From an uncultured virus (IMG/VR IMGVR_UViG_3300042997_001870) (lineage: Duplodnaviria; Heunggongvirae; Uroviricota; Caudoviricetes), in the IMG/VR virus record IMGVR_UViG_3300042997_001870: a stretch of DNA of 64,000 bases. One strand, 5' to 3'. The stretch's first letter is position 1; every line of letters starts with the position of its first letter. A model generated the notes under the pieces. That model did no database searches. It had not been told where the DNA came from and saw only the letters and a program-made list of their open reading frames with translations. The translations under genes and the position numbers were made by a program. Positions 17,111 to 60,844 of the stretch are shown piece after piece.

Positions 17111-17111
17111 A

Positions 17112-35484: not shown

Positions 35485-38022
35485 CTATATGAGAATTTTC
35501 TTAAGTTCAGTGATTACTCGTTCGCTAGTTATCAATTTAGAACACTCAAATTGGCGGTCAGTTCCTTTATGTTCAGGACACCAATTCCAGTCACCAGCAT
35601 CTAATTTTAGTCGATTTGCACAGCCTGAACAAGCGCCAAATGGGGCAGCTAATTTAACCATCCCATTGTCAGGTTCATTATATGGTTCAGTAAATCCAGA
35701 TACTTGAATGGTTGGAGTACCGACTGCCCATGATAACCAAGTAAGTCCACTACTTATTCCAATAACTGCTTGGCATTCACTAAGAGTATCAATAACTGTT
35801 TCAATTGGACCGGCTGGTAATTTTTTAGCTCCAGTTGGATGAGAATTTCCCATGTAACCGTCCTCTTCTCTTGATAAGATTACAGGTTCATATCCATTAA
35901 TTATTAACCAGTTTGTTATGTCTTGCCAACCTTCTGGGTTATTCCAATATTTGGCTTGAGCTGTTCCATGAATTGCAAGTCCAACCTTATTGGTTTTAGG
36001 TTTAGGTTCATGCTTAATAATTGGTTTGATTTCAACATAGTCTAATCCTAAAATATCAGCAGCCGTTCTTTGCAAAGGACTTAATTTAAAATCTCTAGGA
36101 ACCATTTTAGTATTGTAGTTATCGCCATCATAGTGATAGCCTATTTGATAAGCTGCATAAAGATTTGGAATTCCCTGACCCGGTTCTATAAACTTAATAT
36201 TTGGATAGGTTTCCTCAAATAGCTGATTCCAAAATGTTGAACAAATAACTTCGCAATTATGTTTCTTTCTAAATTCTTCAACATACGGAAACCATGCAAG
36301 TGTATCGCCTAGTGCACGTGAGTCGAGCCCAATATAAACTCTTTGACCAGTCGCATCAAATTTTATTTCATGAATTATGTTGCCGAACGTATCCGATACT
36401 TGAATCTTCCAATCCCTAAAGAATTTTTCGTCAGTTTTAGACCAATATTTTGAACGAAGTTCAGTTGAGAATATATTAGTATCGGTCGATTGGTCAATGA
36501 AGTTTACCAAATACGGTTGACTTGATTCAGACACTAGCTCAAGGTATGCACCATCGACAAAATTATAAGAAACTTCTGGGATAATATTAGACTCAGTGTA
36601 GCTTAAGTAATTCAGTTTGATAAATTCAGCATGATCATCTTGTAAAAATTCAGAATACACGGTTTTACCTAAGTAGTTAACTTTTAGAGTTTTACCCTTT
36701 TCGTATTTGCCAACATTGACTAATTCATAACTGTCTTTTATTAGGGTTACAAATTTAACGAAGTTGCCATATCTAACTTCTATTAGGTAATCTTTTGTTG
36801 CTTTAGTCTCATGGAAACCTGAAATTAAGTGAACAAATAGGTCTCCATTATCGTCCGCTGCTGGATAAATTTGAAATAGAGCGTCATCTCGGTAAATACC
36901 ATCTCTATTCCACACAGCTTGAGTGTTTAATTCATTTGAATTTGGAATGTACGGGGTTACTCCGATACTGGAAGTAGTTTCCTTTAAGCAACTCCAAAAA
37001 ACTCTTTCCAATTGCCAGCCGTTTGGCTTATTTGTGAAGTATTCACGCTTGCTCTTGATTTTATCCATTACTGCAACTGCAATATCTGTCTTTATTGAAA
37101 AGATATAGGTTGCAATATAGGAACTGAAATGAGAATCTATTGAAGAGTTTTCATTATACTCGTAAACTACTGCATCATGTAGTTGAGATTTTTCCAAGAA
37201 AGATTGTCTGTATTGGAATTGGTCAACAATACAATCGTATTCCATGAAATGGATTGTTTCCTTACCTAGCATTTTACAGAAGTTAAACGCAAGGGTCATT
37301 GATCTCCAAATTGCAAAATCGTGATGGTACTTCATTGAGTTATCAACGCGATAGTCTTTGATTTTTGTCCATCGCCCACTTGATACTCCGTGACTTTCAA
37401 ATTCGCTATTTAATAGTAAAGGATTCTCTTTGTCAAATAGGTAATAGTCTGCAAGTTTTTGAATTTCAGGTTTAATTGGATAATGTGATACTAGGAGTAT
37501 ATCAATTCCCTTATACACACGTAATCTTTTAAGACAGTCAACTAGATCTTGTTCCTTTTCTGGAGTATCCGGCCAAGTATCAATAACAAAAATGTCATTA
37601 TCATATTCATTGGGTCTAATTATTGAAGGTTCTGTGCTAGGTGAATACTTTTTTGCATTTGCAATTCCGCCTTTTACGCCAAAGAAATTTAGGTCTTCAT
37701 TGACTCCATCGGGAAATGCTAGCGCAAATCCATACCAATATTCATCAAACTTGGTAAAATCACCAGTAAAAATTATGGCTCCGCCAGTCTTTAACATTCT
37801 GGTTGAATTCTCAATAGCTGAGTCTGATACTATTACGTCAAATTGTTCAGTTGGTGCATCATACTCTGCAAGGTTTCCTTTAATCTGCAGATAATTACAG
37901 TCTTCAAATAGCTCCATGACTTGAGATAGTGATTCAGCCACTAGGACTCTCTTTCCTTTGAAATACTCAGGAAAAGAAGTTTTCATTTTTTGACAAAATT
38001 GATATTGGGTTTCGATCATCAT
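35485..38022 (-). CDS. Aah/TibC-family protein O-heptosyltransferase with degenerate N-terminal methyltransferase and a middle domain
   Basis: ALGDTLAWFPYVEEFRKKHNC, IGISSGLTWLSWA, CSGC...WCPEHKGTDRQFECSK. Confidence 0.85.
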   Translation of the reverse strand: MMIETQYQFCQKMKTSFPEYFKGKRVLVAESLSQVMELFEDCNYLQIKGNLAEYDAPTEQFDVIVSDSAIENSTRMLKTGGAIIFTGDFTKFDEYWYGFALAFPDGVNEDLNFFGVKGGIANAKKYSPSTEPSIIRPNEYDNDIFVIDTWPDTPEKEQDLVDCLKRLRVYKGIDILLVSHYPIKPEIQKLADYYLFDKENPLLLNSEFESHGVSSGRWTKIKDYRVDNSMKYHHDFAIWRSMTLAFNFCKMLGKETIHFMEYDCIVDQFQYRQSFLEKSQLHDAVVYEYNENSSIDSHFSSYIATYIFSIKTDIAVAVMDKIKSKREYFTNKPNGWQLERVFWSCLKETTSSIGVTPYIPNSNELNTQAVWNRDGIYRDDALFQIYPAADDNGDLFVHLISGFHETKATKDYLIEVRYGNFVKFVTLIKDSYELVNVGKYEKGKTLKVNYLGKTVYSEFLQDDHAEFIKLNYLSYTESNIIPEVSYNFVDGAYLELVSESSQPYLVNFIDQSTDTNIFSTELRSKYWSKTDEKFFRDWKIQVSDTFGNIIHEIKFDATGQRVYIGLDSRALGDTLAWFPYVEEFRKKHNCEVICSTFWNQLFEETYPNIKFIEPGQGIPNLYAAYQIGYHYDGDNYNTKMVPRDFKLSPLQRTAADILGLDYVEIKPIIKHEPKPKTNKVGLAIHGTAQAKYWNNPEGWQDITNWLIINGYEPVILSREEDGYMGNSHPTGAKKLPAGPIETVIDTLSECQAVIGISSGLTWLSWAVGTPTIQVSGFTEPYNEPDNGMVKLAAPFGACSGCANRLKLDAGDWNWCPEHKGTDRQFECSKLITSERVITELKKILI

Positions 38023-38025
38023 TTA

Positions 38026-38658
38026 TTATTGGTATTTTTGTAGAAATTGTTCTACTTGTATTAAATTTAAGTGGTGAATTCTATTTTGGTCAAAGTGATT
38101 AAATTCATAGAATGGATTGCTAAATTCGCAGCACTCTTGAGAGCCTCTTCGGATAATACCGACGCCCCAATCAGTGTCAACTGTGCATATTTCAAGATCA
38201 GGTCGAGTTGCTCTAAACTTGTAGACTGCTTTCCAAACGGTTCCATTCCAATATCCACCGGCTTGAGTTGACCAATCTGCAAAATCTTCCCTAGCTGCGT
38301 AAACGGTTGGAGGATTACAGTCATGTAAAACTATTATACCGGTTAGGCTCAAATGGTTTAGTGCATTCAGTATATCGCGTTCAACTTGATCAGAAATATG
38401 AAGCCCATCAATAAAGATAATATCCCATTTGTAATGGGTGGGCAAGTCAAATTCGCCAGATTCAAGTAGAGCAAAGAATTCGTCAGACGTGCAACGATAG
38501 TCAATTTGAGCATCAACTTCAAAACACGGGTCAACTGAGTGTTTGGTCTCAGCATTAACGTGATTGAAACAGTCAGAGGGTTCCCTAACTCCAATCTCTA
38601 GGTAATTCTTAAAAGAATAGGTAGAGATTAAGTGATTTATTATATCATATCTTAGCAT
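38026..38658 (-). CDS. Class I SAM methyltransferase (Methyltransf_24-like)
   Basis: YLEIGV, DIIFIDGLH, IIVLHDC. Confidence 0.85.
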   Translation of the reverse strand: MLRYDIINHLISTYSFKNYLEIGVREPSDCFNHVNAETKHSVDPCFEVDAQIDYRCTSDEFFALLESGEFDLPTHYKWDIIFIDGLHISDQVERDILNALNHLSLTGIIVLHDCNPPTVYAAREDFADWSTQAGGYWNGTVWKAVYKFRATRPDLEICTVDTDWGVGIIRRGSQECCEFSNPFYEFNHFDQNRIHHLNLIQVEQFLQKYQ

Positions 38659-38666
38659 AGGTTAAA

Positions 38667-41471
38667 TTATTTCCAAAAGTAAATTAATTGTAGAGCATTA
38701 TTATGTCCACACAGTAACATATAGGAATGGAATCCCAAGTTTCTGAACCTCATTACAAATTCATTACGAAGTTCATCATTAAAGTATAAGTGTTCGTGGT
38801 GATACTCAACTGCAATATTTCTAATCTTAGATAGATTCTCATCGCTGATTCCTTGTAGTGCAATTATTTCAGAACCTTCAATATCAACCTTTAAGAAGTC
38901 GATTCGGTCAATTACACCATTCTCCAATAAAGAATCAAGAGTATAAACATTTACCTCGTATTGAGTATGCCTAGCGTCAGGTTGGTGCCACAGATTTGAA
39001 CCACCTAGGTGTTCGCTCTCAGTTAGGCGTAGGGTTCCAGGTTTATCGCCAATTGCTGCATTAAATAAGATTGCTTGAGCTGGTGCATTTTGTTTTAAAA
39101 TTTCAAAGTACCTACGATCAGGTTCAAATGTTACGATTTTACTTGCACCCATGTGATGCGCGTATCTAGTAAATATTCCAATATTACCTCCAAGATCAAC
39201 CACAACATCGCCAGGCCTAACCTTAACTGCCGGTTCAGCTAATTCTCTTGGGTGTTCATAATCAGTTAGGTTATAAATTTCATGAAAGATTGCATAATCC
39301 CAACCATACTGATGCGCAATATCCATTGTTCCACCTGGAACTCCTTGAATTGATCCAAGATTTTTGATATAGTTCTTTTCAGTAAAGAAATATTTTGTAT
39401 CGTGAAAGTTATTATCGCGTTGGGCTTTTACGTAATCTGTCATAAAGGTTGCAAACTCTAAATCCTTGTTTCCATGAAAGTACAGAATCGTTGATTTATC
39501 CTGTGGTACAAACTGCCAGCCGTAGATCTTTCCAAAATTCTTTGGACCACGGTCTCTCCAAAATGAAATAAAGTGTTCCATTGCTTTGCCAGTTCGACCC
39601 AATAAGTCACCATCATATTCAGATACGTCAAAATTTGAAATTGGTAGCATTTCAGTTTTGGTGTACTTGCATCTTAGGTAGTTATCAATACCTTCATCAT
39701 TCCATTGTAATAGTTTAGAATAGTCTTCAAGCGGCATTGTTTTATAGAAGTCAAGAATCTCATTAAACCACCAATCGCATTGCTTATTATAGACATACAT
39801 GCAAATGTGAGCCTTTTTAGCAAGTCGGTCAATGCCGTCTCTATTGCAAAGTACTTCATTAAATAATTGTTGTTTTATTTGGCCAGTCTCATCATTATAA
39901 AAACCAATAAAATCTGCCTGCACATGTACATCTGGAATTGGATAGTCAGTTAACTTGCTAAAATGATTTGAAATATTGTCAATCGTATGGTTTGCTATAA
40001 TATCGCCGTCCAACCAGATAAAGTTCTCAAAGTCTTCAGTTAAAGAAGCAAGACATGCGTACTGTTTCCAATACCATTTATCGTGTACTGAGTGAAATGG
40101 GATAGTTAAAGTTTTGGCAATTAAGTTTGGATGAGAGAATGGAACTTCACAGCCAATACCATACACTATAATCTTTCTGTTTGAGAAAAGACCTAGTGAA
40201 TTTACTAGCTTTTCAATAATTGGCATATAGTTTAGATTACCGCAGGTCACCCATGCAAAGTCAGTTGAGTATTCATTCACTCTAGGAGATAGAAGCTCCT
40301 GGATGTGATCGCATGCGATCTGTGCAGCATTGGCCCATGTGAATTGATCTCTAATTATTTCTGAATCAGCCAGTGCTCTTTCTTTATATAATTCAAACTC
40401 GTCGTATACTTCTCTGAACCGGAGTTTAAGATCCCCAAAGTCAGGTTCAGCGAAATTACCAGGAGAGGTAGAGTCCCATGATTCGTCATTACTAACCCCA
40501 GCTGGAACTTCTCCATGTATGTTAACTGGTATACCCTTACCTTGAGCGAATTGCAGTTGAGCTCCCCAATTGGAATACATTGCTGGAATACCTGAAGCCA
40601 TTGCCTCAATTAGCGGAAGATTCCAACCTTCGCTTCGTGCACATGATACGAAAACATCGGCGCTTTGCAGAAGCTTAACGTAATCTTCTTTTGATTGGTG
40701 ATGCACTATTTTTATACCTGCATGAGAGAGTCCAAATTTTGCAAGGCGGTCTTCCGTTGTTGAAAGGCCATCATTTGCAAATCGATTATCTACGCTTAGT
40801 ACTAATTCAACTTTCTCGTCTTCTGAGAAAGTTTCAATGAAAGCTTTAATTATTTCTTTAGTTGATTTACGATATTCCCAACGACCAACTACTACAAATC
40901 TAAAAGGTCTGCCTTCTGGAAATTGGGTTGAGTTAGATATAGGTTTAAACATCTCAATATCAACTCCTTCTGGCACAACTTTTACCTTATTTGCTGGAAT
41001 TCCCTGTTCAATAGTACACACTCTTTGCCATTCACTAGGTACCCAAACTTGATCAAACTTTTTAAGCTTTTCAAAGAAGTCTGCCGGTTGTCTGGTGGTT
41101 TCCCAAACATTATATGCAATTGAAGGTCCAGGGTAGGACTCGTTAAAGTAAGAATGGTTTGTGTCATTCAGCACAATATTGACAATTGGATCAGATACGT
41201 TTGATTTTGCCTTTAAGTATAATGGATAATCAGAGTAACCGCCGTCCTGGTGAGTTAACGATTGAGTCATTAGCATTGTTTTAAGCTCGCGGTCCATGTA
41301 GTACTCGCCATTATGAGGTTCGTCATTATTGTAACCTGCCCAACTTTCGCCAACTGTCCAATTACGGACGCTTACCGGTACTATCCGGTTTAGGGCTTTG
41401 AAAAAATTTCTGGAATGGCAATTATATCCAGTTTCTCCAATTATTGAGGTATGTGCTTTAATTGATGTCAT
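38667..41471 (-). CDS. Fusion protein: GT4 glycosyltransferase + GT-A glycosyltransferase + FkbM methyltransferase
   Basis: RSEGWNLPLIEAMASG; IWLDGD...YFHG; VDLGGNIGIF...LKVDIEGSE. Confidence 0.88.
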   Translation of the reverse strand: MTSIKAHTSIIGETGYNCHSRNFFKALNRIVPVSVRNWTVGESWAGYNNDEPHNGEYYMDRELKTMLMTQSLTHQDGGYSDYPLYLKAKSNVSDPIVNIVLNDTNHSYFNESYPGPSIAYNVWETTRQPADFFEKLKKFDQVWVPSEWQRVCTIEQGIPANKVKVVPEGVDIEMFKPISNSTQFPEGRPFRFVVVGRWEYRKSTKEIIKAFIETFSEDEKVELVLSVDNRFANDGLSTTEDRLAKFGLSHAGIKIVHHQSKEDYVKLLQSADVFVSCARSEGWNLPLIEAMASGIPAMYSNWGAQLQFAQGKGIPVNIHGEVPAGVSNDESWDSTSPGNFAEPDFGDLKLRFREVYDEFELYKERALADSEIIRDQFTWANAAQIACDHIQELLSPRVNEYSTDFAWVTCGNLNYMPIIEKLVNSLGLFSNRKIIVYGIGCEVPFSHPNLIAKTLTIPFHSVHDKWYWKQYACLASLTEDFENFIWLDGDIIANHTIDNISNHFSKLTDYPIPDVHVQADFIGFYNDETGQIKQQLFNEVLCNRDGIDRLAKKAHICMYVYNKQCDWWFNEILDFYKTMPLEDYSKLLQWNDEGIDNYLRCKYTKTEMLPISNFDVSEYDGDLLGRTGKAMEHFISFWRDRGPKNFGKIYGWQFVPQDKSTILYFHGNKDLEFATFMTDYVKAQRDNNFHDTKYFFTEKNYIKNLGSIQGVPGGTMDIAHQYGWDYAIFHEIYNLTDYEHPRELAEPAVKVRPGDVVVDLGGNIGIFTRYAHHMGASKIVTFEPDRRYFEILKQNAPAQAILFNAAIGDKPGTLRLTESEHLGGSNLWHQPDARHTQYEVNVYTLDSLLENGVIDRIDFLKVDIEGSEIIALQGISDENLSKIRNIAVEYHHEHLYFNDELRNEFVMRFRNLGFHSYMLLCGHNNALQLIYFWK

Positions 41472-41574
41472 GCAAAAGAATCTAGTGTTTCTATTTTATA
41501 CTAGGTTTTTTAAGATTGGTTAAGTAAACTATAAAAAAAGATAGAGTATAAAACAGGTAAATTATCAATGTGAT

Positions 41575-42162
41575 ATGATAACACGTGCAGTATTTCAACA
41601 ACCCGAAGCAGACATGCTAAATTGGTATTGGTTTTCCAATGGTTTTAGCAAAGAAGATATTAATCTGGTGCATGAGACATCCTCTACTTTTCCATATACT
41701 GATGCAATAACATTTGGCAATGCTCAGCCTGATGAAGCAGTCAGAAAGAGCCGAATTAAATGGCTTAGCAATTCGCCAAAGACTGAATGGCTTTACGATA
41801 AATTAATGGACCTTGCAGTTATTGCAAATAAGGAGTTATGGAATTTTGACCTTGTATCAATGGTAGATTCAATCCAGTACACTGAATATCATGAAGGTGG
41901 AGGTCATTATGGTTATCACTTAGATATTGGAGCGGGCTCTGCCTCGCTACGTAAGGTAAGTATGGTTGTACAGTTAAGCGATCCAGCTGATTATGATGGA
42001 GGTCAATTTGAAGTACTTAGAGGTATGAATCCTGAACCTCTACCCAATACACAAGGTGCTGTGTTGCTTTTTCCAAGTTACGTAATGCACCGAGTTACTC
42101 CGGTTACTAGAGGTACTCGTAGGAGCCTAGTTATTTGGGTAGGAGGTTCACATTATCGTTAG
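41575..42162 (+). CDS. 2OG-Fe(II) oxygenase (PKHD / prolyl-hydroxylase-like)
   Basis: HLD...HRVTPVTRGTRRSLVIW. Confidence 0.9.
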   Translation: MITRAVFQQPEADMLNWYWFSNGFSKEDINLVHETSSTFPYTDAITFGNAQPDEAVRKSRIKWLSNSPKTEWLYDKLMDLAVIANKELWNFDLVSMVDSIQYTEYHEGGGHYGYHLDIGAGSASLRKVSMVVQLSDPADYDGGQFEVLRGMNPEPLPNTQGAVLLFPSYVMHRVTPVTRGTRRSLVIWVGGSHYR

Positions 42163-42164
42163 GA

Positions 42165-43055
42165 CTAAAGTCCAAATCTGCCCCTGGCTGCATCCCAATT
42201 TTGAACTACGTCAGCTGCTGATAATTCTATATCGTACATGCGGAAAGCAGCGATATTGCCAGTTATTCTTCTAAAATCATATCTAGGATCACCGCCTACT
42301 ACTATATGAGAGGCTGGATGTATTACTACAGCTGGGCCGCCTCCGCCAGTACCAGATAATGCACCATTTAGGTAAATCTTGGTCTCAAGTGGGCCAAATG
42401 TTCCTACTACATGATACCAATTGCCAGCGGTTAAATTGACGGCAGTGGTTGCGCTCACAATAGTAGAAGTTCCAATCGGCTCAGAGTTAACATAAAAAGT
42501 CATGCTAGTAGAACCAGCCGTAGCATTTGGATGAAGTAACCATGAATTAGCAGAATTCCAATCGTCAACATTAAATATGCTTTGGCCGGCACCGGCTCCT
42601 ATTGCCCAAGATCCACTAGTCGCGTTAATCCAAATTTCAACACTAAAAGTGCTCAACGGGTTTGGGACTTGGGTACATCGTATATGATCGTCTGTTCCAT
42701 CAAATGTAAAAGATCCTCCATAGTTAGGATCCCAATACGTGTCGTTCATTAAAGTTCCATCAGATATTATAGGATCAACGCTCAAATCGGTTACGATCGG
42801 TCCACCACTAGGATAAGAACCCACTGGCGGAAAAGCATCATAATTTAGTATTAAGCCTGAGGTTACAATCCAGCGCCCATCATATCCATACCAATGATCC
42901 GGCGAATACGGGGGTCCGCCAGTTGGCTGAATATAACTACACGGGTTTAGTGCCCCATAAGTGCCGGCCATAGCATCTGACAAGTTAAATGCACCGCTGG
43001 CTCCAAACTCACTCTGTATTTGCCCGAAAGTTATTTGTCCTGAATATGGAAGCAT
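42165..43055 (-). CDS. Fibre-tip adhesin-like protein with LamG domain
   Basis: N-terminus LPYSGQITFGQIQSEFG; C-terminal LamG; directly follows the fibre gene. Confidence 0.75.
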   Translation of the reverse strand: MLPYSGQITFGQIQSEFGASGAFNLSDAMAGTYGALNPCSYIQPTGGPPYSPDHWYGYDGRWIVTSGLILNYDAFPPVGSYPSGGPIVTDLSVDPIISDGTLMNDTYWDPNYGGSFTFDGTDDHIRCTQVPNPLSTFSVEIWINATSGSWAIGAGAGQSIFNVDDWNSANSWLLHPNATAGSTSMTFYVNSEPIGTSTIVSATTAVNLTAGNWYHVVGTFGPLETKIYLNGALSGTGGGGPAVVIHPASHIVVGGDPRYDFRRITGNIAAFRMYDIELSAADVVQNWDAARGRFGL

Positions 43056-43056
43056 A

Positions 43057-46000: not shown

Positions 46001-49000
46001 CCACTTGAACCGTTTGAACCGCTTGTGCCTGATGTTCCAGAAGTTCCGCTTGAACCTGACGTTCCAGCTGTACCTGAAGTTCCGCTTGAACCAGTAGGGC
46101 CGAGTGGACCAGTTGCACCGGTTGCACCACTAGTTCCAGAAGTCCCGGAAGTACCAGAAGTTCCAGTTGCTCCATCTACGCCACTTGTGCCTGAAGAACC
46201 GGCTGTACCTGAAGTTCCAGAAGAACCTGATGTCCCGCTTGTTCCGGAAGTTCCACTTGAACCGGAAGTTCCCGAAGTTCCAGAAGTACCAGTTGAACCT
46301 GAAGTTCCAGCAGTTCCGCTTGAACCAGAAGTACCGCTTGTTCCACTTGAACCTGAAGTTCCGGACGTACCAGTAGAACCTGAAGTTCCAGCAGTACCAC
46401 TTGAACCTGAAGTTCCAGTAGAACCGGATGTTCCACTTGTGCCTGAAGAACCGGATGTTCCACTTGTGCCTGATGTACCAGTTGAACCAGAGGTTCCACT
46501 TGTGCCTGATGTACCAGCAGTACCTGACGAACCAGTTGATCCGCTTGTACCTGAAGTTCCAGTAGAACCTGATGTTCCAGAAGAACCACTTGCTCCAGTT
46601 AATCCACTTGTTCCTGAGGTACCACTTGTGCCTGAAGTTCCAGCAGTTCCAGAAGAACCGGCAGTTCCTGAAGTACCTGAGGTACCAGCTGTGCCTGAAG
46701 AACCTGATGTTCCACTTGAACCAGCCGTTCCAGAAGTACCTGACGTACCGCTTGAACCTGAAGTTCCTGAAGTACCTGACGAACCAGCTGTGCCTGAAGA
46801 ACCTGATGTTCCACTTGAACCAGCCGTTCCAGAAGTACCTGAAGTACCAGTTGAACCTGAAGTTCCTGAAGAACCTGAAGTTCCAGAGACACCATCTATT
46901 CCTGAGGTTCCGCTTGATCCTGAAGTACCAGAAGTACCACTTGTGCCTGAAGAACCGGCAGTGCCGGATGTACCTGAGGTTCCGCTTGTTCCAGTCGAAC
47001 CTGATGTTCCGCTTGTTCCGGAAGTACCAGAAGTTCCGCTTGTACCAGAAGTACCTGAAGTTCCGGCTGATCCAGAAGTACCTGATGTTCCGCTTGATCC
47101 TGAAGTACCTGATGTTCCAGTCGAACCTGAAGTACCTGATGTTCCAGAAGTACCTGCGATTGCGCCAACTGACGTCATTACAAATGAATAGTATGAAGCA
47201 CCTTCAGTATACCAAATAGCGGTATGTGAAGTTGAATCGTTATTATTTAAGTAGATCTTAACGATCATTCGGTTAGTAAGACTAATACCGGTAGTTGGAA
47301 GAACTATATCGCAAGTTACCTCAGCTGGTACACTACCGCTTACCCATCCAATTCCAGAAATGCCTGACGTTATTATTGAACCAATTGCGGTTCCAGTTGA
47401 ATCCGCTAATTGAATTGTTACGTACGCTGTAATATCATCATTTGATGCTGGTTTTAAGAAGTGCAAATGGAATCTTTGTGTTCCACCTGGAATTATAGCA
47501 AATCCTAATTCGGGAGTTAAGAAGCTTGAAACTTGAACATCCTGTATGTGGCCAGTTAATATAGTAGATACAGTTTGTTGAGCTGCTCCACTAGGCTCGG
47601 TCATTAATACTTTATATGGAGATACTGCACTTGATTGACTTTGATTAAAATAATAGGTTTGACCTGCTGATATACCAGTTGCACCGGCAGTACCTGAAGT
47701 TCCGCTTGATCCGGCTGTGCCCGAGGTTCCACTTGTTCCAGAAGTACCTGAAGTTCCAGAAGTTCCAGAAGAACCAGCAGTGCCTGAAGTACCGCTTGAA
47801 CCAGCTGTACCTGAAGTTCCACTTGAACCTGAAGTTCCAGAAGAACCTGAAGTGCCTGAAGTGCCTGAAGCTCCATCCATTCCACTTGTTCCAGAAGAAC
47901 CACTAGTACCACTAGAACCGCTTGTTCCGGATGTACCAGCTGTGCCTGAGCTGCCGTTTGATCCAGAAGTTCCACTTGAACCTGAAGTACCGGCTGAACC
48001 TGAAGTACCGCTTGTTCCAGTAGAACCAGAAGTACCAGCCGTTCCAGAAGTACCGGCTGATCCAGAAGTTCCAGCTGTGCCGGCCGTACCAGAGCTACCA
48101 GCTGTGCCTGAAGTACCACTTGTGCCTGAAGTACCTGAGGTACCTGAAGTCCCAGTAGAACCAGAAGTTCCCGAAGAACCTGATGTACCAGATACTCCAT
48201 CTAGTCCCGATGTACCACTAGAACCAGAAGTACCGGAGGTTCCAGATGTTCCACTAGAACCACTTGTACCTGAAGTACCAGCTGTTCCTGATGTTCCACT
48301 TGTGCCTGATGTTCCACTTGTTCCGCTAGACCCGTTTGAGCCGCTTGTTCCTGAAGTACCAGTTGAACCTGAGGTCCCGCTTGTGCCTGAGGTTCCTGAT
48401 GTTCCACTAGAACCTGAAGTTCCAGAAGTACCTGATGTACCGGAAGTTCCACTTGAACCGGCGGTTCCTGAAGTTCCACTAGAACCTGAAGTTCCAGAAG
48501 TACCTGAGCTACCGCTTGAACCATCGACTCCGCTTAGGCCGCTTGTACCTGAAGTTCCTGAAGTACCAGAACTACCAGCTGTGCCAGAAGTACCTGAAGT
48601 ACCTGAGGTACCGCTTGTTCCACTTGTACCGGAAGTTCCAGTTGATCCTGAAGTACCTGATGTACCGCTTGTTCCACTTGAACCTGAAGTTCCACTTGAA
48701 CCTGAAGTTCCAGAAGTTCCACTAGTTCCTGATGTTCCACTTGTTCCTGAGGTCCCGCTTGTTCCTGAGGTTCCACTAGTTCCAGCTGAACCTGAAGTTC
48801 CGCTTGAACCTGAAGTCCCTGAGACTCCATCTATACCTGATGTTCCTGATGTCCCAGCTGTTCCTGAGGTACCACTTGATCCTGAAGTACCGGAAGTACC
48901 TGACGAGCCGTCTGATCCGCTTGTTCCTGAGGTTCCACTTGAACCACTAGTACCTGAAGTTCCAGCAGAACCAGATGTTCCTGAAGTACCAGATGTACCT

Positions 49001-52000
49001 GAAGTACCGGAGGTTCCAGAAGAACCGTCCGACCCGCTTGTTCCTGAAGTTCCTGAAGTTCCAGAAGAACCAGCAGTCCCGCTTGTTCCAGAAGTTCCTG
49101 AAGTACCAGCTGAACCAGATGTTCCACTTGATCCTGAAGTACCCGATGTTCCACTTGAGCCTGATGTACCAGATGTTCCACTTGAACCTGAAGTACCTGA
49201 GGTACCGCTTGTTCCAGAAGTTCCTGAGGTACCAGCTGTTCCACTTGTTCCTGAAGTTCCAGTTGAACCAGAAGTTCCACTAGAACCTGAAGTTCCTGAG
49301 ACTCCATCTATTCCTGAAGTACCTGAAGTACCGGATGTACCACTTGAACCTGAAGTACCAGATGTACCAGCTGTGCCAGAAGTACCTGAAGTTCCACTTG
49401 AACCTGAAGTTCCAGAAGTACCTGAGCTACCGCTTGTTCCTGATGTGCCGGCTGTACCGGATGTTCCAGAGGTTCCACTAGAACCTGAAGTTCCTGAAGT
49501 ACCTGAGCTACCACTTGTTCCTGATGTTCCAGAAGAACCATCTGATCCGCTTGTACCTGATGTACCAGCCGATCCACTAGTTCCGCTTGATCCTGAAGTT
49601 CCAGAGACTCCATCTATACCTGAAGTACCTGATGTACCCGATGTTCCACTTGAGCCGGATGTACCAGCTGTTCCACTTGTTCCAGAAGTACCTGAAGTAC
49701 CTGAAGTTCCGGCTGTTCCGCTTGAGCCAGATGAACCGTCGACTCCACTTAGACCACTTGAACCTGAAGTTCCAGATGTTCCACTTGAGCCGGATGTACC
49801 AGCTGTTCCACTTGTTCCAGAAGTACCAGAAGTACCTGAAGTACCTGAAGTTCCGGCTGTTCCTGAAGTTCCAGTTGAACCGCTTGTTCCGCTTGAACCA
49901 GAAGTACCAGAGACTCCGTCTATACCTGATGTTCCGCTTGTTCCGGAAGTACCAGAAGTTCCGCTTGAACCAGAAGTACCGGCCGTGCCGGATGTACCAG
50001 AAGTGCCGCTTGTACCAGAAGTACCTGAAGTTCCGGCTGATCCAGAAGTACCTGATGTTCCGCTTGATCCTGAAGTACCTGAAGTACCGCTTGATCCGCT
50101 TGTACCAGAAGTACCAGAAGTACCCGATGTTCCACTTGAGCCGGATGTACCGGATGTTCCACTTGTACCAGAAGTACCAGTAGAACCGCTTGTTCCTGAA
50201 GAACCAGAAGTTCCTGAGACTCCATCTATTCCTGAGGTACCTGACGTACCTGAAGTTCCGCTTGTGCCTGAGGTTCCTGATGTTCCACTAGAACCTGAAG
50301 TTCCAGAAGTACCTGCTGTACCGGATGTTCCACTTGTGCCAGAGGTTCCAGTAGAACCGCTTGTTCCTGAAGAACCTGATGTACCAGCGGTGCCGCTTGT
50401 TCCAGAAGTTCCGCTTGTACCGGAAGTTCCGCTTGATCCTGAAGTTCCCGAAGTACCTGAAGTACCAGTTGAACCTGAAGTTCCACTAGAACCTGAAGTT
50501 CCTGAGACTCCGTCTATACCTGATGTACCACTAGTTCCTGAAGTACCTGAAGTACCTGAGGTTCCTGATGTCCCGCTTGTTCCGGAAGTTCCACTTGAAC
50601 CGGAAGTACCAGAAGTACCGGATGTACCTGAAGTTCCAGAAGTTCCAGAAGTTCCGCTTGAACCTGAAGTTCCTGAGACTCCGTCTATACCTGATGTACC
50701 ACTAGTTCCAGCTGTACCAGAAGTACCAGCTGTTCCGCTGGTGCCTGATGTTCCACTTGAACCTGAGGTTCCGGATGTTCCATTTGTACCATTTACTCCA
50801 CTTATTCCTGAACTACCAGAAGTACCTGATGTTCCACTTGATCCTGAAGTACCTGAAGTACCACTAGTTCCTGAAGTACCCGATGTTCCAGAAGTTCCTG
50901 AAGTTCCTGAAGTTCCAGTAGAACCTGAAGTTCCACTTGATCCGGAAGTACCGGAAACTCCGTCTATTCCTGAGGTACCTGAAGTACCTGATGTTCCACT
51001 TGATCCTGAAGTACCTGAAGTACCACTTGTGCCTGAAGTTCCGCTTGTACCGGCTGTGCCTGATGTACCTGAGCTACCATCTGACCCGGAAGTTCCGCTT
51101 GATCCGCTTGTTCCAGAGACTCCATCTATTCCTGAGGTACCTGAAGTACCTGATGTTCCACTTGATCCTGAAGTACCAGAAGTACCGGAAGTTCCGCTTG
51201 TACCGGAAGTACCGGCTGTGCCTGAAGTTCCACTTGAACCAGAAGTTCCAGAGACTCCGTCTATACCTGAGGTACCACTAGTTCCTGAAGTACCTGAAGT
51301 ACCAGATGTTCCACTTGTACCGGCTGTACCTGAAGTTCCGCTTGAACCTGAAGTACCAGACGTACCGGAAGTTCCTGCTGTTCCAGAAGTTCCACTTGAT
51401 CCGCTTGTTCCAGAGACTCCGTCTATTCCTGAAGTACCCGATGTTCCAGAAGTTCCACTTGAACCGGAAGTTCCAGCCGTGCCAGATGTTCCAGCAGTGC
51501 CTGAAGTACCTGCTGTTCCAGACGTTCCGCTTGAACCTGAAGTTCCAGAGACTCCGTCTATTCCTGATGTACCACTAGTTCCACTTGTTCCGCTTGAACC
51601 GGAAGTTCCAGCCGTGCCAGATGTTCCAGCAGTTCCCGAAGTTCCAGCAGTTCCCGACGTTCCGGCTGTTCCAGACGTTCCACTAGAACCTGAAGTTCCA
51701 GAGACTCCGTCTATTCCTGATGTACCACTTGTTCCGCTTGAACCTGAAGTTCCAGCAGTGCCTGAAGTACCGCTTGTGCCGCTTGTACCAGAAGTACCGG
51801 AAGTTCCGGCTGTTCCAGACGTTCCACTAGAACCTGAAGTTCCAGAGACTCCGTCTATTCCTGAGGTTCCGCTTGTTCCAGAAGTACCAGAAGTTCCAGC
51901 AGTACCTGACGTACCAGCTGTTCCAGAAGTTCCAGAGGTTCCGCTTGTTCCTGAAGTTCCACTAGAACCAGAAGTTCCAGAGATGCCGTCTATTCCAGAT

Positions 52001-52155
52001 GTTCCAGCAGTACCTGAAGATCCAGCAGTTGATGGAAGAGGCGTATCATTATAGAATGGGTTTCCTTGTGCATCAAGTACTAAGTATCTAGTAAGTGATA
52101 TATCTTGACCTACATTACTGAGGTCAACTTGTTTTATTTTAATTTTGTGAGACAT
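43057..52155 (-). CDS. Giant collagen-like fibre, (Gly-Thr/Ser-Ser)n and (Gly-Pro-Thr)n, with a C-terminal peptidase S74 intramolecular chaperone
   Basis: About 2650 residues of Gly-[12 protein letters not shown]...[15 protein letters not shown]...LIEAIKEQQ. Confidence 0.9.
43530..52030 (-). repeat. 9-nt-period coding repeat (Gly-X-Y), interrupted at about 47158-47676
   Basis: Degenerate GGN ACN TCN/AGY repeats with varied synonymous codons. Confidence 0.95.
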
Positions 52156-52214
52156 TCAGCGGGACTTGCATTTTTCTACTAGAGTTATTTATCAGCAAGG
52201 ACCGATATAAGTAG

Positions 52215-53171
52215 CTATACTCGTTTACTCTTAGCATATAAAATTGCATCTACGTATTTGGCAGACGCGGTGTCTGGTTTAATGTATGACAGATCTGCAT
52301 CGAACGGACTCGTTGATCTAAAATCAGCTTTGTAAAAAAGCTCTTTTCTATTCGCGTCTGTAACTCCAGCATTGTGCATTATTTTGCACTTTTCATAAGC
52401 ATCGGTATTGGAAGTTCCCCAACTAAAATCTAATTCTGGAGTAGTTATAGTTTGTGCTCCCATTTTCCATGCACCCCATAGAACAGCCCACATATCTGCA
52501 CACCATTTTTGAATTGGATTAAATGAATTAGCCTCTTCTGGACTTAATTTTGCACGATCTTGAGTTTCTCGATCTGCCATGTACTTATATAGAGTAAGTG
52601 AATCTTCTGCAACTTCTTTCCAAAAATTAGCAGTGACTCCTTTCATTAAGTATTGAGCTCCACCTGAGCCTTCTTGGTTCTGTTCAACCACTTCAGGCGA
52701 GATCTTTGCAAGACTGCATAGATCAATGAATAGGTCATTTGATTTGCTCTTGATGTACTCTGATCCAATATATGAAACAGTATCACTTAGATACCAATAC
52801 AAGTCTCCGTGCATTTGATCAAAGTCTGGAATTTCTCTAAAGATGATATCTGAATCATGATAGAAGATAGACTCTCCTCTAAGTTCAGGGAATCTTAGGA
52901 AGTGCTGCTCTAAAATATCGGGCCTAAGGATTGGAATATAGCCGTGATTTTGCGTGATTCTCTTTTTATAGAAAAAGAAGCGTACCATTGGATACTTACG
53001 TGCAAGAGCTAAACCTTCGGCTGACGGTTCGGAATCATACGCAAATAGTAATTCTATCCAATTTGGATTGATACCAAGCTTCATAAAATTATGAATTAAT
53101 ACTTCCACTTGCCAATGAAAGTATTGGTGGTCCGGCTGAGCGGACATGAAAATTGTCTTCTTATTTAACAT
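52215..53171 (-). CDS. Putative protein O-glycosyltransferase, HPAT / peptidyl-serine galactosyltransferase-like (GT-A)
   Basis: YFHWQ, YHDSDIIF (DxD), GGAQY, WCADMWA, IMHNAG. Confidence 0.6.
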   Translation of the reverse strand: MLNKKTIFMSAQPDHQYFHWQVEVLIHNFMKLGINPNWIELLFAYDSEPSAEGLALARKYPMVRFFFYKKRITQNHGYIPILRPDILEQHFLRFPELRGESIFYHDSDIIFREIPDFDQMHGDLYWYLSDTVSYIGSEYIKSKSNDLFIDLCSLAKISPEVVEQNQEGSGGAQYLMKGVTANFWKEVAEDSLTLYKYMADRETQDRAKLSPEEANSFNPIQKWCADMWAVLWGAWKMGAQTITTPELDFSWGTSNTDAYEKCKIMHNAGVTDANRKELFYKADFRSTSPFDADLSYIKPDTASAKYVDAILYAKSKRV

Positions 53172-53201
53172 ACTAAATTATACTAAGAAAAAGACCTGAG
53201 T

Positions 53202-56165
53202 TTAGCCGCTATTAGCTGAGAAGCAAGACTCACAAGTCGTGTAAGCTCCAAGTATTGGAGGAAGCCAGTTTATTATAGTACCAGTTTGTGGACCTTGCAC
53301 TGTGTAACAACCTGCTGGATAATCGCCATCTATTGCGCTAAAGTAATATATGCGACCAATTACTGGATGATGTCCTGAAGTTGCAAAATCAACTGACAGT
53401 GTTATTGCTGGGTTTGCACAATTTACTATATCAACTTGATCTTCTATTTCGCCTGCGGTGGTTGTTGTTGTAGTTGTGTCCCCTATTGGCGCCTCAGTTG
53501 TAGTAGTCGTAGTAGGTTCCTCAGTTGTAGTAGTCGTAGTAGGTTCCTCAGTAGTAGTTGTCGTACTCGTTGGAGCTACTGTCGTAGTTGTACTAGTTGG
53601 AGCTACTGTAGTTGTCGTAGTTGTACTAGTTGGAGCTACTGTCGTAGTTGTACTAGTTGGAGCTACTGTTGTTGTCGTACTCGTTGGAGCAATCGTAGTA
53701 GTCGTGCTAGTTAGTTCAGGTTCAAGAGTGGTTGTTGTAGTTGGACCTCCCTCCATAACTTCAAATTCATAAGTACATGGGCCTATTTTAATTGACCAAG
53801 TTCCGTAATCTTCTGGAGAAATATGGAAAGGTAAAAGTGTAGTAATTACCGATTCTTCATCTATAATTGGCACATACGTACCTTGTGGTATTATTTCACC
53901 ATGTGCATTAATCACGTCTAGCGCCATTGGATCAATTGTAATTGACGAAATTATAATTGACATAGTGCCTTCATCATCAACTGTATATGCTACATCTAAC
54001 GGTGGACACGTGGTAGTACTAGTTGTAGTGCCAACCGTTGTTGTACTGGTAGTTGGAGCAGAGGTTGTTGTACTAGTGCTGGTCACAGCAGCCGTAGTGG
54101 TCGTCGTTGTGTACACTACTGGTGCCGCAGTTGTACTAGTAGTGGTTGGTGCAGCAGTAGTAGTCGTGGTAGTGATAGATTCGTCACAGCCGATTGCATC
54201 GATTGTTTGAAGATCGTAATTAAAGTTAAAGCAATATGAGCATTCCTCAATCGTTATTGTTACCTTTCCATAAACCAATTCTACGATAGACGGATTAGGT
54301 ATATTGTTAGCTGCAAGCAAATGGCCGTCTTGCTCAATTAAGTAAGACGACTCTGGCCCTTCAAAGCTAAACTCTACAGCATACTCACCAAGTAAGGTTG
54401 GAGTAACTGTGAATCTATCGCATGGCGGTAGTGTTGTGCTCGTAGTAGTCGGGCCAACTGTAGTTGTTGTAGTAGTTGGAGCCAAGGTAGTTGTAGTAGT
54501 TGGAGCCAAGGTAGTTGTAGTAGTTGGAGCAGCAGTTGTACTAGTGGTCGTAGTTGGCGGTAATGTTGTACTAGTAGTGGTTGCTGCAAGCGATACAATA
54601 ACGTTATATTGACAACCTGACGATAATTGGAAAGTATAAGTTCCAAATACTGTGCTTATTCCAGCAGATGCGTATTCAGAAAGGGTTCTATCAAAAATCC
54701 ATGATAGGCTAATTGGAACTCCATGTAAGTCAGTTAGGTCATACGAAGGTCCTCCGACTGGCATAAATGTAACGCTGTGTGGTCCGCTTGGAGTACCGAT
54801 AAACGACACTTGAGTTGCAGCTGGATCGTAATCAACATCATAGAATATTGAACCTGGTGCACAAGTGGTGGTTGTGGTAGTAGGTTGAATTGTGGTAGTT
54901 GTTGTAGGAATAATTGTAGTTGTACTGGTAGTAGTTGTAATTTCCATAAATGGAATTACAAAAAACGGGCTAAACGAAGTAACCTGTGCATAGATTTCAC
55001 GGGTAGCGTAATTTGGTGCATAGGGTCCAGTTAAAACAGTTTCATCAACGTATGTTCCGCTTACCTCATGGAAAATTCTAACTGTATCAAATACAGGTTG
55101 AGTCATTGCTTGAGGTAGGGTAAATCTAATTAGGGCTCCAATGGTTAATGGAGTTGTGATCTCAAATGCCAAATTTGCATTCTGTAAGTAATAGCCGTAT
55201 GGAGTTGCTCCATTTGGTGTACTTGGCGGTGGTGGCACTGCACATACTGTAATTGGTGCAGCTTGAGCAACTACACTGTCTAATATAATTTCAACTCCTA
55301 CTTGGTTATAAGTTGCAGTATCATTACCTGCTGTAATGATTTGAGTATTACATAGTACGCCAGCCGATGAACAATACGGGTCAGCTGATGTGTATATTAA
55401 GGTAACAAAATCTAAATTATCTAAACCGTAATTGGCAATAGAAGTATTCCAATAGAGTTCATCAGTTGAGTCAACGTGCCCATAATTTGATGCAGTAACT
55501 CCTCCATCTTTACTAAAATATGCTGGGGCTAAAATATCTCCATCACCAACAATTACCTGTTGACCATTAATGAATAGTAAGTACTCACTGGTGGTAAGTG
55601 GAGCGGGCATTGGTAAAAGGCCTGGCGAAACAAGTTCACCATCTCCGGTTACTGTGTTTGGTGTAACTGATCGGGTAATAGCTGCTCGGCAATTACCACC
55701 ACTACCGCCGCTTAGCAGAGTCCAACCGGTTGAAACTAGATATCCGTAAAAACCTTCTTGTCTTTGGCCTTGAGCAGTAATATAAACTACTTCTCCTGGA
55801 ACTCCAGTTGGAGGTAGCAGCCCAAATACTTTTAATCTTAATCGTCTACCCTCAACCACATCTTCCATTACCACATTCTTACCGGTAATAGCCCCAGTTG
55901 GGTAAAGTTTAATTACTTCAGGATATGTACCATTCTGTTGCTGAGCTCCGTATACCGTTAATCCTTCTCTAACAATAATAGTATTTGCAGAAATTCCTTC
56001 AATATCAACAGTTACTTGAGAACCTTGATCATAATTGATCGAGGTTAGAAACTCATCGATAGCTGACTTTATTGTGCTAAAGTTGAAGTTTGTTAAATCA
56101 ACGACACTGGTTAAACTTGCGCCGTTTATCGATTTAATGCTTTGAATTTTTAACTGTACTGCCAT
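53202..56165 (-). CDS. Mucin-like poly-Thr virion protein
   Basis: Four Thr-rich tracts (TTTTT, APTSTTTTV) separating small Cys-containing beta domains. Confidence 0.8.
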   Translation of the reverse strand: MAVQLKIQSIKSINGASLTSVVDLTNFNFSTIKSAIDEFLTSINYDQGSQVTVDIEGISANTIIVREGLTVYGAQQQNGTYPEVIKLYPTGAITGKNVVMEDVVEGRRLRLKVFGLLPPTGVPGEVVYITAQGQRQEGFYGYLVSTGWTLLSGGSGGNCRAAITRSVTPNTVTGDGELVSPGLLPMPAPLTTSEYLLFINGQQVIVGDGDILAPAYFSKDGGVTASNYGHVDSTDELYWNTSIANYGLDNLDFVTLIYTSADPYCSSAGVLCNTQIITAGNDTATYNQVGVEIILDSVVAQAAPITVCAVPPPPSTPNGATPYGYYLQNANLAFEITTPLTIGALIRFTLPQAMTQPVFDTVRIFHEVSGTYVDETVLTGPYAPNYATREIYAQVTSFSPFFVIPFMEITTTTSTTTIIPTTTTTIQPTTTTTTCAPGSIFYDVDYDPAATQVSFIGTPSGPHSVTFMPVGGPSYDLTDLHGVPISLSWIFDRTLSEYASAGISTVFGTYTFQLSSGCQYNVIVSLAATTTSTTLPPTTTTSTTAAPTTTTTLAPTTTTTLAPTTTTTTVGPTTTSTTLPPCDRFTVTPTLLGEYAVEFSFEGPESSYLIEQDGHLLAANNIPNPSIVELVYGKVTITIEECSYCFNFNYDLQTIDAIGCDESITTTTTTAAPTTTSTTAAPVVYTTTTTTAAVTSTSTTTSAPTTSTTTVGTTTSTTTCPPLDVAYTVDDEGTMSIIISSITIDPMALDVINAHGEIIPQGTYVPIIDEESVITTLLPFHISPEDYGTWSIKIGPCTYEFEVMEGGPTTTTTLEPELTSTTTTIAPTSTTTTVAPTSTTTTVAPTSTTTTTTVAPTSTTTTVAPTSTTTTTEEPTTTTTTEEPTTTTTTEAPIGDTTTTTTTAGEIEDQVDIVNCANPAITLSVDFATSGHHPVIGRIYYFSAIDGDYPAGCYTVQGPQTGTIINWLPPILGAYTTCESCFSANSG

Positions 56166-56220
56166 TGTATATTTACAGGATTAGGCTTTATACCTATTTA
56201 TTAACCCGAAAGTTTCCTCG

Positions 56221-57573: not shown

Positions 57574-57579
57574 ATTGTT

Positions 57580-59652: not shown

Positions 59653-59731
59653 TAATTTGTTCTTTTTGTTATTTATCGCAGAGTATTGCGGTTTTAGCCT
59701 AAAATAAATAACAAGAAAACTAGGGGTACTT

Positions 59732-60821: not shown

Positions 60822-60844
60822 GGTTTTAGTATTTTTAAGTAGTG

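Follow-up and report, generated by a model that had tools for sequence, protein, structure and literature searches.

A candidate phage-encoded system for the post-translational tailoring of Ser/Thr-rich appendage proteins

A 64,000-nucleotide stretch of DNA from an uncultured virus of the Caudoviricetes (IMG/VR record IMGVR_UViG_3300042997_001870), called the window here, contains a minus-strand late-gene block among its tail genes. Two very large Ser/Thr-rich proteins are encoded in this block beside glycosyltransferases, methyltransferases and an oxygenase. The block probably specifies a post-translational tailoring system by which the phage modifies its own appendages. Three pairings of an enzyme with a substrate-like protein share 20 kb: a transferase of TibC/Aah type with (Gly-Thr/Ser-Ser/Ala)n repeats, a GT-A fold glycosyltransferase of 318 amino acids (aa) with a poly-Thr protein, and a 2-oxoglutarate (2OG)-Fe(II) oxygenase with proline in collagen-like repeats (Table 1).

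An earlier account of the same DNA, referred to below as the sequence-only reading, had proposed that the Ser/Thr-rich fibres of the phage are modified by the enzymes encoded beside them. This view is now supported indirectly, by three comparative tests and by the composition of the fibre. The further suggestion that the appendage serves host capture, shielding or mimicry is a guess. Enzymes of these kinds in the tail regions of aquatic phages are usually taken for modifiers of the host surface or of DNA, or go unexplained. If the proposal is correct, the orphan glycosyltransferases, FkbM methyltransferases and 2OG oxygenases of aquatic phage tail regions would each gain a concrete substrate next door. 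Glycosyltransferases in phage tail-fibre clusters have previously been interpreted as modifiers of host O-antigen (PMC7029224).

Three pairings in one block

The 3032-aa product of the fibre gene is rich in Gly (30%), Ser (26%) and Thr (22%). An N-terminal segment of 44 aa is followed by a first run of Gly-X-Y (GXY) triplets, a 171-aa insert, a second GXY run and a C-terminal Peptidase_S74 intramolecular chaperone (PF13884, 54.7 bits, cut-off 22), the module by which many phage fibres trimerise. Tail-fibre PHROGs match the same C-terminus. Run 1 (residues 45-1496) consists of 484 unbroken triplets of the type (G-T/S-S/A)n, with no Pro in 1452 aa. Run 2 (residues 1668-2876) has 403 unbroken triplets and shifts past about residue 2300 to (G-P-T/L/A)n, where Pro occupies 49% of X positions and Thr 49% of Y positions.

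Since Gly recurs at every third residue 887 times in the two runs together, the pattern is not due to chance. X is Thr in 57% of the triplets and Y is Ser in 67%, which provides 593 Y-position Ser residues per chain. A 217-aa sample segment matches Pfam Collagen (E 4e-28), and a second contig (L082) shows equal repeat length over the portion that it covers. The Gly-Thr/Ser fibre of the sequence-only reading is thereby borne out. The insert (window 47155-47667, minus strand; residues 1497-1667) is a non-repeat segment dividing the two runs, and it has no significant Pfam family; it might act as a hinge, a knot or a binding site. The rise of a triple helix is usually taken as 0.286 nm per residue, at which run 1 would span about 415 nm and run 2 about 346 nm.

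Among the 2661 repeat residues there are no Lys, no Arg and no Glu, with 28 Asp and 111 Pro, the latter confined to run 2. KGE and KGD salt-bridge triplets are absent from the repeats. Viral collagen-like proteins are described as unusually rich in KGD triplets, and otherwise as dependent on KGD/KGE bridges, and (Gly-Pro-Thr)10 is reported to adopt only a random coil when its Thr residues carry no galactose (PMC11923368). With Lys, Arg and Glu missing from the repeats and Pro from run 1, sugar on Ser or Thr is the sole known helix stabiliser remaining. Judged by its composition, the fibre would not be helical at all without sugar.

The gene for a LamG protein starts 1 nt past the fibre stop codon. 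The LamG domain assigned to it earlier is confirmed, and the protein is probably a fibre-associated binding protein; the place at the fibre tip that the sequence-only reading gave it is a guess.

The first pairing involves the C-terminal part of an 845-aa enzyme. Residues 484-845 (window 35488-36573) match TIGR04414 with 268.7 bits (cut-off 200; profile positions 11-374 of 374) and TibC in the Protein Data Bank (PDB entry 4RAP) with E 8e-49, spanning TibC residues 24-382. The same residues score 27.5 bits on the model of lipopolysaccharide (LPS) heptosyltransferase I (cut-off 185) and 16.6 bits on RfaC (cut-off 437). On these profile matches, the domain is a true member of the TibC/Aah family of bacterial autotransporter heptosyltransferases (BAHT), as the sequence-only reading had stated.

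Residues were mapped by hand along the 4RAP alignment, with the roles of TibC residues taken from PMC4358343. The catalytic base Asp110 corresponds to D573, Thr226 and Lys230, which bind the beta-phosphate of the donor, to T687 and K691, and Trp305, which contacts the heptose, to W762; all four are invariant in 27 phage homologues. The iron-finger residues Cys339, 342, 358 and 370 correspond to C798, C801, C815 and C827, each at least 90% conserved in the same homologues. At the position that governs stereoselectivity (Pro300 in TibC, Ser294 in AAH), Ser or Gly is found. BAHT enzymes have a beta-hairpin thumb with two hydrophobic tip residues and form a ring dodecamer (PMC4358343); the thumb-tip residues Phe265-Val266 of TibC align with Tyr723-Met724, beside a 3-residue deletion.

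A second domain, missed in the sequence-only reading, has a GT-A fold (residues about 136-360, with a conserved E-Y-D motif) and is followed by a beta-sandwich up to residue 483. The model of residues 136-483 has a predicted local distance difference test (pLDDT) value of 82.7. Among its Foldseek matches (E about 1e-5, TM-score 0.35-0.39) are hyaluronan synthases, mannosylglycerate synthase and, from the human lysyl hydroxylase LH3, the glycosyltransferase domain. Residues 1-135 are without assigned family, and the two N-terminal parts of the protein find nothing significant in Pfam. The GT-A domain is also joined to the TibC-like domain in distant relatives.

Evidence for a link between this enzyme and the repeats can be found in related loci. 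In an IMG/VR sample, 258 of 261 candidate stretches encode a TibC-like relative; 80 loci were kept and grouped into 36 clusters at 80% identity, with flanks of 10 kb or less. An open reading frame (ORF) was counted as Ser/Thr-rich GXY if it holds at least 90 repeat residues. Such an ORF lies within the flank in 20 of the 36 clusters and within 1.5 kb of the enzyme in 12, often directly abutting it. The shorter motif G[TS][SA]G[TS][SA]G was found in a large non-collagen fibre at 7 of 18 loci without a GXY ORF, and some enzyme loci have one to five motifs in such a fibre. None of 42 comparison loci without the enzyme have the motif.

The link was put to a cleaner test in prokaryotes, where 71 genome loci were split at 39% identity and scored for an ORF with at least two motifs within 2 kb. 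This ORF is present beside 23 of 36 homologues that are at least 39% identical (21 of 26 with full flanks) and beside 2 of 35 below that value (1 of 20 when the flanks are complete). Those bacterial homologues that have no repeat protein next to them share only 32-38% identity with the phage enzyme. The synteny check suggested by the sequence-only reading is positive for the TibC-like enzyme, and its concern that the enzymes occur independently of such fibres is answered in part, by the clusters that show the pairing.

In methanotroph chromosomes, the neighbour of the TibC-like gene is a small secreted protein of near-pure (GTS/GTA)n sequence. In those of Methylobacter and Methylococcales (L230 6923-7783, plus strand; L250 9163-10056, minus strand), the N-terminus resembles a signal peptide and the (GTS/GTA)n tracts are long. 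They are candidate bacterial glycoproteins of the same enzyme-substrate type.

The TibC-like enzyme occurs in 4 of 50,697 GenBank phage records, one of which belongs to Microcystis phage Mel-JY01 (L146, PP395634.1), a cultured carrier of the same pairing of enzyme and repeat. Positions 2-3049 (plus strand) of this record hold an unannotated (G-T/S-S)n frame of at least 1016 aa that runs off the record start, and the opposite strand is annotated as Pro-rich 'hypothetical proteins'. A 1226-aa fusion with a C-terminal TibC-like domain, annotated 'methyltransferase FkbM', lies at positions 4750-8430, 1.7 kb past the repeat frame, and a 'cytidylyltransferase like protein' follows 2.8 kb beyond the fusion. 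A literature search for Mel-JY01 found no paper.

Presence and absence of the block can also be compared within one lineage, using a control anchored on the baseplate protein; the lineage is the same throughout, and no base rate follows from it. Two relatives with a baseplate protein 70-71% identical (L200, L201) carry, at the corresponding place, an S74 fibre that is not a collagen. It is accompanied by a LamG-like gene and a tube-like gene, and no enzyme block lies between these genes. Beside the fibre of L201, a relative without the enzyme block, a 134-aa protein (4777-5181, plus strand) has a Thr/Ala/Glu-rich tail (TTTEATTTAATTTEATTT...). A TibC-like domain 64% identical to that of the window was found in L227 (CAIWBA010000291.1, 254,203 bp), filed in the bin of an uncultured Bacteroidetes metagenome-assembled genome. 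To judge by its size and likeness, this contig probably stems from a related phage whose genome fell into the bin, and it hints only faintly, if at all, at the host.

The second pairing joins the 318-aa enzyme to the poly-Thr protein. The enzyme has an H-N-A-G motif and a D106-x-D108 motif that is invariant in 17 sequences, and its model has pLDDT 93.8. Foldseek matches this model to the UGGT catalytic domain, WbbM, XXYLT1, LgtC and Skp1 alpha-galactosyltransferase (E about 1e-7), so that by predicted structure it appears nearest to retaining GT8/GT24-type enzymes; several of the top matches act on glycoproteins. The GT-A fold and D-x-D motif are shared with these enzymes; the TM-scores are just 0.37-0.49. 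By sequence, a search of the PDB gave nothing useful (best E 0.57) and no Pfam family was found even up to E 10; 2218 uncharacterised relatives exist at cluster level.

The sequence-only reading had called this enzyme HPAT/SERGT-like. The GT-A fold and the invariant D-x-D agree with that description; kinship to plant HPAT (PF23452) is a weak lead. This family matches 1 of 17 relatives (E 0.0087) and occurs on 10% of the members of the corresponding ESM atlas cluster, which is a lead only. Unlike HPAT, the phage enzyme pairs with poly-Thr rather than with hydroxyproline or Ser, and no membrane anchor is visible in it.

The poly-Thr protein proposed earlier as a substrate is confirmed as to sequence, with 21.5% Thr in 987 aa and six Thr-rich tracts among globular modules. 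An N-terminal domain of 400 aa is followed by four Cys-containing modules split by Thr/Pro tracts, for instance (A-P-T-S-T-T-T-T-V)n. The N-terminal domain is conserved upstream of homologues of the 318-aa enzyme.

Of 20 clusters that could be assessed, 15 have a poly-Thr ORF upstream of these homologues, on the same strand and no more than 1 kb away; at 1.1 kb the number is 17. The adjacency is kept in relatives of the enzyme that are 56-62% identical and have no collagen nearby; in cluster L113, no poly-Thr ORF stands beside the homologue. Only 2 of the 80 TibC-anchored loci contain a poly-Thr ORF, and one of these two has the 318-aa enzyme too. Because of the adjacency in 15 of 20 clusters, the likely target of the enzyme is the poly-Thr protein and not collagen. 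The sequence-only reading is corrected on this point, as the enzyme tracks neither collagen nor hydroxyproline.

Directly upstream of the poly-Thr gene is an Amidoligase_2 gene (PF12224; window 56221-57573, minus strand). Its position is kept in most close relatives of the poly-Thr/318-aa pair (59-82% identity), and its product is perhaps one more enzyme of the block that modifies proteins.

The third pairing is that of the 195-aa oxygenase with proline. The assignment to the 2OG-Fe(II) oxygenases made earlier stands, and the H-x-D...H...R motif is intact in an alignment with PKHD hydroxylases. Among the loci surveyed by tblastn, a homologue was found solely in the window, the L002 cluster, L154/L156 and the distant L058. 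Exactly these loci have Pro in their GXY ORFs, at 8-18% of repeat residues and mostly as G-P-T/Q/A. All other tabulated GXY ORFs have at most 3% Pro and no oxygenase homologue, and the sister lineages L011, L026 and L171 have neither the oxygenase nor Pro in their repeats. As far as these sequences indicate, the oxygenase tracks Pro within true Gly-X-Y repeats, and it is proposed to hydroxylate the Pro residues of the fibre's G-P-x zone.

Two further genes complete the set of enzymes. The GT4 part of a 934-aa fusion has NCBIfam matches to EPS/PelF-type GT4, and an FkbM methyltransferase forms its C-terminal part. The middle domain is without a Pfam match; an ESM atlas lead to GT8/nucleotide-sugar transferase clusters (score 0.88) points weakly to a possibly GT8-like GT-A domain. 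Of the GT4, GT-A and FkbM domains read here earlier, the first and last are thus firm and the middle one is a weak lead. The identical fusion architecture adjoins the TibC-like gene in relatives at 43-68% identity.

The second gene encodes a small methyltransferase, in agreement with the sequence-only reading. A Methyltransf_24 homologue occupies the same position in L011, L023 and L028, and the enzyme is proposed to be a sugar O-methyltransferase.

A proposed pathway and known systems

The sequences establish family membership, catalytic residues, folds, repeat anatomy, gene order and co-occurrence; the chemical steps of the pathway, its sugars, the triple helix and a place of either protein in the virion are proposals. 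The pathway would begin in the host cytoplasm, where the TibC/Aah GT-B domain would add a first sugar to Ser, perhaps also Thr, of the (Gly-Thr/Ser-Ser/Ala)n repeats. This sugar would come from the host in nucleotide-activated form, as heptose or a different one. The glycan could then be extended by the GT-A domain of the 845-aa enzyme, by the GT4 domain of the 934-aa fusion and by the possible second GT-A domain of that fusion, and methylated by the FkbM and Methyltransf_24 enzymes. The oxygenase would hydroxylate Pro in the C-terminal Gly-Pro-Thr zone, and the S74 chaperone would trimerise the C-terminus of the fibre. With sugars in place of hydroxyproline and salt bridges, a triple helix of about 0.4 + 0.35 micrometres would zip up. 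Separately, the 318-aa enzyme would glycosylate the 987-aa product of the adjacent upstream gene on its poly-Thr tracts.

A bolder version can be put forward, which seems doubtful as a whole. In it, a collagen of about 0.76 micrometres would fold only after the TibC-like enzyme had placed sugars on Y-position Ser, glyco-Ser acting as hydroxyproline does in animals; because run 1 has no Pro and the repeats no charge pairs, such a collagen could not fold from its sequence alone. The block would also comprise a Gly-Pro-Thr hydroxylase and a new GT-A family for poly-Thr, and might represent a viral extracellular-matrix toolkit present in hundreds of aquatic phages and some bacteria.

The closest known systems are TibC-TibA and Aah-AIDA-I of E. 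coli (4RAP/4RB4). The phage enzyme resembles TibC in its beta-barrel, GT-B core and four-Cys iron finger (PMC4358343), and in the catalytic Asp, phosphate-binding Thr and Lys and sugar-contacting Trp that it retains. In both cases the gene of a soluble enzyme lies next to that of a long, Ser-rich repeat protein, exported or assembled, which the enzyme is presumed to hyperglycosylate. The phage enzyme differs in being virus-borne, fused to a GT-A domain and accompanied by GT4 and FkbM. Given this fusion and these partners, the glycan is likely to be longer and methylated.

BclA of the Bacillus anthracis exosporium and other glyco-Thr collagens offer a second comparison. In their collagen-like (Gly-Pro-Thr)n the helix is stabilised by sugars and not by hydroxyproline (PMC11923368), and the final 600 or so residues of the fibre are of this GPT type. 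Most of the fibre differs from BclA in being Gly-Thr-Ser, with Ser in Y and no Pro; it is also about ten times longer, and other enzyme families are involved. Glycosylated BclA and worm cuticle collagen were described by Daubenspeck 2004 and Mann 1996, as cited in PMC11923368.

Mycobacteriophages provide a precedent for glycosyltransferases that are encoded beside structural genes and decorate the phage's own particle (PMC12619734). The C-termini of capsid and tail-tube subunits are modified there, while kilobase-long repeat fibres and poly-Thr tracts are the proposed targets here. The enzyme families are different, and hydroxylation and methylation are proposed here in addition.

The oxygenase can be compared with the prolyl 4-hydroxylase superfamily, with which it shares the 2OG-FeII_Oxy_3 domain and the intact motif, and it is found only with Pro-containing Gly-X-Y repeats. 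Animal collagen prolyl 4-hydroxylase acts on Pro in the Y position, whereas Pro of the fibre is mainly in the X position (G-P-T).

Two known kinds of process, protein O-glycosylation by BAHT enzymes and glycosylation of virions, would be extended by the phage system, with two chemical fibre zones added. If the proposal is true, the BAHT family reaches from pathogen adhesins to viral collagen-like fibres, and a Ser-linked path to a stable collagen triple helix exists that is free of hydroxyproline. Hosts, grazers and immune systems would then meet a coat of sugar on many large phages. Our literature searches found no paper uniting TibC-type enzymes, phages and collagen-like fibres, and nothing on collagen fibres in the literature on phage virion glycosylation.

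Points against the proposal and rival explanations

Several observations weigh against a tailoring system directed at the phage's own appendages. First, the pairing of the TibC-like enzyme with GXY repeats is frequent, not obligatory: for 16 of the 36 clusters, the DNA examined contains no Ser/Thr GXY ORF of such length. Even the short motif is absent at L035, L046/L048/L078, L054, L057, L065, L066, L070, L077 and L080. The count of the motif in the 42 comparison loci without the enzyme gives no true base rate, because these loci are not random phage DNA and many are mutually kin.

Second, the transferred sugar is in doubt. TibC Arg286 hydrogen-bonds adenine N1 of the donor and accounts for the use of an ADP-activated sugar, and its change to Ala abolishes or largely diminishes heptosylation (PMC4358343). 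In the phage enzyme it is replaced by Val743, and the site is V, A, L, T or I across the phage clade. A complete 271-kb relative (G002) has no match to SIS_2 (GmhA fold) or CTP_transf_like (HldE domain II), the sole families tried. Because of this replacement and this absence, heptose is uncertain as the sugar, and identification of the sugar as heptose was dropped for want of either heptose-donor family in G002. The sequence-only reading had cited heptosylation of Ser by Aah/TibC; for the phage enzyme, the family and the catalytic residues hold and the heptose is unproven.

The setting of the enzyme is also unusual for its family. BAHT enzymes are known solely with autotransporter adhesins (PMC4358343). 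No autotransporter lies in the window, where the GXY fibre is the neighbour; the presumed substrate here is this Gly-X-Y fibre, in contrast to the beta-helix autotransporters of TibC and Aah.

Third, the fibre has the long unbroken Gly-X-Y runs and C-terminal trimerising domain of a collagen-like protein and none of the sequence-encoded stabilisers (Pro or hydroxyproline, Lys-Gly-Glu/Asp bridges), apart from the Pro of run 2. Helix formation itself is therefore in question.

Fourth, the best solved relatives of the oxygenase are PKHD-type hydroxylases (3dkq, PiuC; E about 1e-9), for which no substrate is known. No collagen or chlorovirus prolyl hydroxylase was found among solved structures at E up to 1, and known collagen prolyl hydroxylases are thus not its closest kin. 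Its homologues were sought by tblastn, which divergent oxygenases would escape, and the co-variation with Pro draws on some four lineages, of which three are closely related.

Finally, the 987-aa protein has no significant family, whether searched by its N-terminal domain or its C-terminal half, and the assumption that it belongs to the virion comes from the position of its gene. Its assignment as a fibre through likeness to a 958-aa fibre-like protein was considered and dropped, as the N-termini match with E 0.34 or worse.

Two rival explanations are each unlikely, and a third is far less likely still. The enzymes might remodel the host surface (LPS, capsule or a host surface protein), for instance as a block to superinfection, in a fibre region that is merely a hot spot of accessory genes. 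This is the printed reading of glycosyltransferases in the tail-fibre 'host recognition cluster' of pelagimyophages (PMC7029224). It is in keeping with the EPS/PelF-type matches, with GT4, GT8-like and FkbM enzymes being typical of O-antigen synthesis, and with the clusters that have no long GXY ORF near the enzyme. However, residues 484-845 score far higher on the autotransporter model than on the LPS models, where they fall below the cut-offs. A hot spot also leaves unexplained the clade-specific link to (GTS)n in bacterial chromosomes, the match of oxygenase and Pro, and the poly-Thr adjacency.

It is similarly improbable that the enzymes glycosylate other virion proteins, such as those with short G-T-S-G motifs or the ends of capsid and tail-tube proteins, and leave the fibre unmodified, maybe as a flexible non-helical brush. 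Virion sugars of mycobacteriophages are found at the C-termini of capsid and tail-tube subunits (PMC12619734, citing Freeman et al. 2023), the 845-aa gene abuts a tail-tube-like gene, and a non-collagen fibre with one to five motifs is what some enzyme loci have to offer. Against this stand the 12 clusters with a Ser/Thr GXY ORF within 1.5 kb and the essentially pure (GTS)n proteins beside the enzyme in bacteria. The fibre itself offers its hundreds of Y-position Ser residues per chain in repeats that are without every other known helix stabiliser.

TET/JBP-type 2OG oxygenases have a part in phage base hypermodification, and PHROGs names the family of the small methyltransferase 'DNA methyltransferase', a label that also counts against a role in tailoring. 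Hypermodification of phage DNA to evade restriction, in which the glycosyltransferases, methyltransferases and oxygenase would yield hydroxylated, glycosylated or methylated bases, is highly improbable, although DNA glucosylation is a reported role of phage glycosyltransferases (PMC12619734): the oxygenase matches PF13640 and PKHD structures and no TET/JBP family, proteins are the substrates of the TibC family (PMC4358343), each enzyme co-varies with repeats that look like substrates, and the block lies in the tail module, away from the replication genes at window 1-8000.

Genome context and neighbouring genes

The window is part of the genome of a huge tailed phage, with genes for a large terminase, a baseplate wedge protein, a tail-sheath-stabiliser-like protein and a tail-tube-like protein. 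The terminase is at most 37% identical to that of any GenBank phage, the nearest being uncultured 460-640-kb phages, Sphingomonas phage PAU and Lak phages. Close relatives are represented by complete contigs some 271 kb in length. The nearest record, IMG/VR fragment G001, is 100% identical across window 1-20000 (20-kb query) and has no match to window 35485-43055 or 44001-64000. The enzyme block found no match by megablast against the GenBank phage records.

All genes from 56165 down to 34860 are on the minus strand except that of the oxygenase. Gaps of 1-10 nt separate fibre and LamG genes, fusion and methyltransferase, methyltransferase and 845-aa enzyme, and 845-aa enzyme and tube-like gene. 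The coordinates of all eight ORFs in the sequence-only reading were verified.

Table 1. Genes of the block and further appendage genes in the window
Feature	Position	Strand	Basis or remark
845-aa multi-domain enzyme	35485..38022	-	TibC/Aah (BAHT) domain and GT-A domain
210-aa class I S-adenosylmethionine-dependent methyltransferase, Methyltransf_24	38026..38658	-	PF13578, 31.1 bits, cut-off 26.3
934-aa fusion: GT4 (~100-390), middle domain (395-735), FkbM methyltransferase (756-915)	38667..41471	-	profile matches
2OG-Fe(II) oxygenase, 195 aa	41575..42162	+	PF13640 (2OG-FeII_Oxy_3), 53.3 bits
LamG (concanavalin-like) protein, 296 aa	42165..43055	-	PF13385, 72.3 bits
Giant collagen-like tail fibre, 3032 aa	43057..52155	-	GXY triplet statistics, Pfam Collagen, PF13884
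318-aa soluble GT-A fold glycosyltransferase	52215..53171	-	phrog_4417, E 3.8e-65; predicted structure
Mucin-like poly-Thr protein, 987 aa	53202..56165	-	sequence and tract analysis; no known family
1183-aa protein, five LamG domains	29505-33056	+	further appendage gene
339-aa LamG protein	33844-34863	+	further appendage gene
958-aa fibre-like protein	60845-63721	-	short Pro-rich collagen segment GQPGPIGSTGIVGPDGPQGPDGPAGPTGS near N-terminus

The G+C content climbs from about 36% to 47-56% across the fibre gene (window 42000-52000). This rise is due to the Gly/Ser/Thr codons of the repeats; foreign DNA was considered as its source and rejected, as the codon content accounts for it.

A second, stand-alone FkbM-family methyltransferase (PF05050, 47.3 bits) is encoded far from the fibre block, at window 11535-12350 on the minus strand, among genes without assigned function. 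Between the baseplate wedge gene and the gene for the five-LamG protein lies a phage transfer-messenger RNA (window 29016-29383, plus strand), which scores 112.4 bits on Rfam RF00023 against a gathering score of 47 and for which ARAGORN gives the tag peptide GNTNFWSLVNAGVSTPVTEELLAA.

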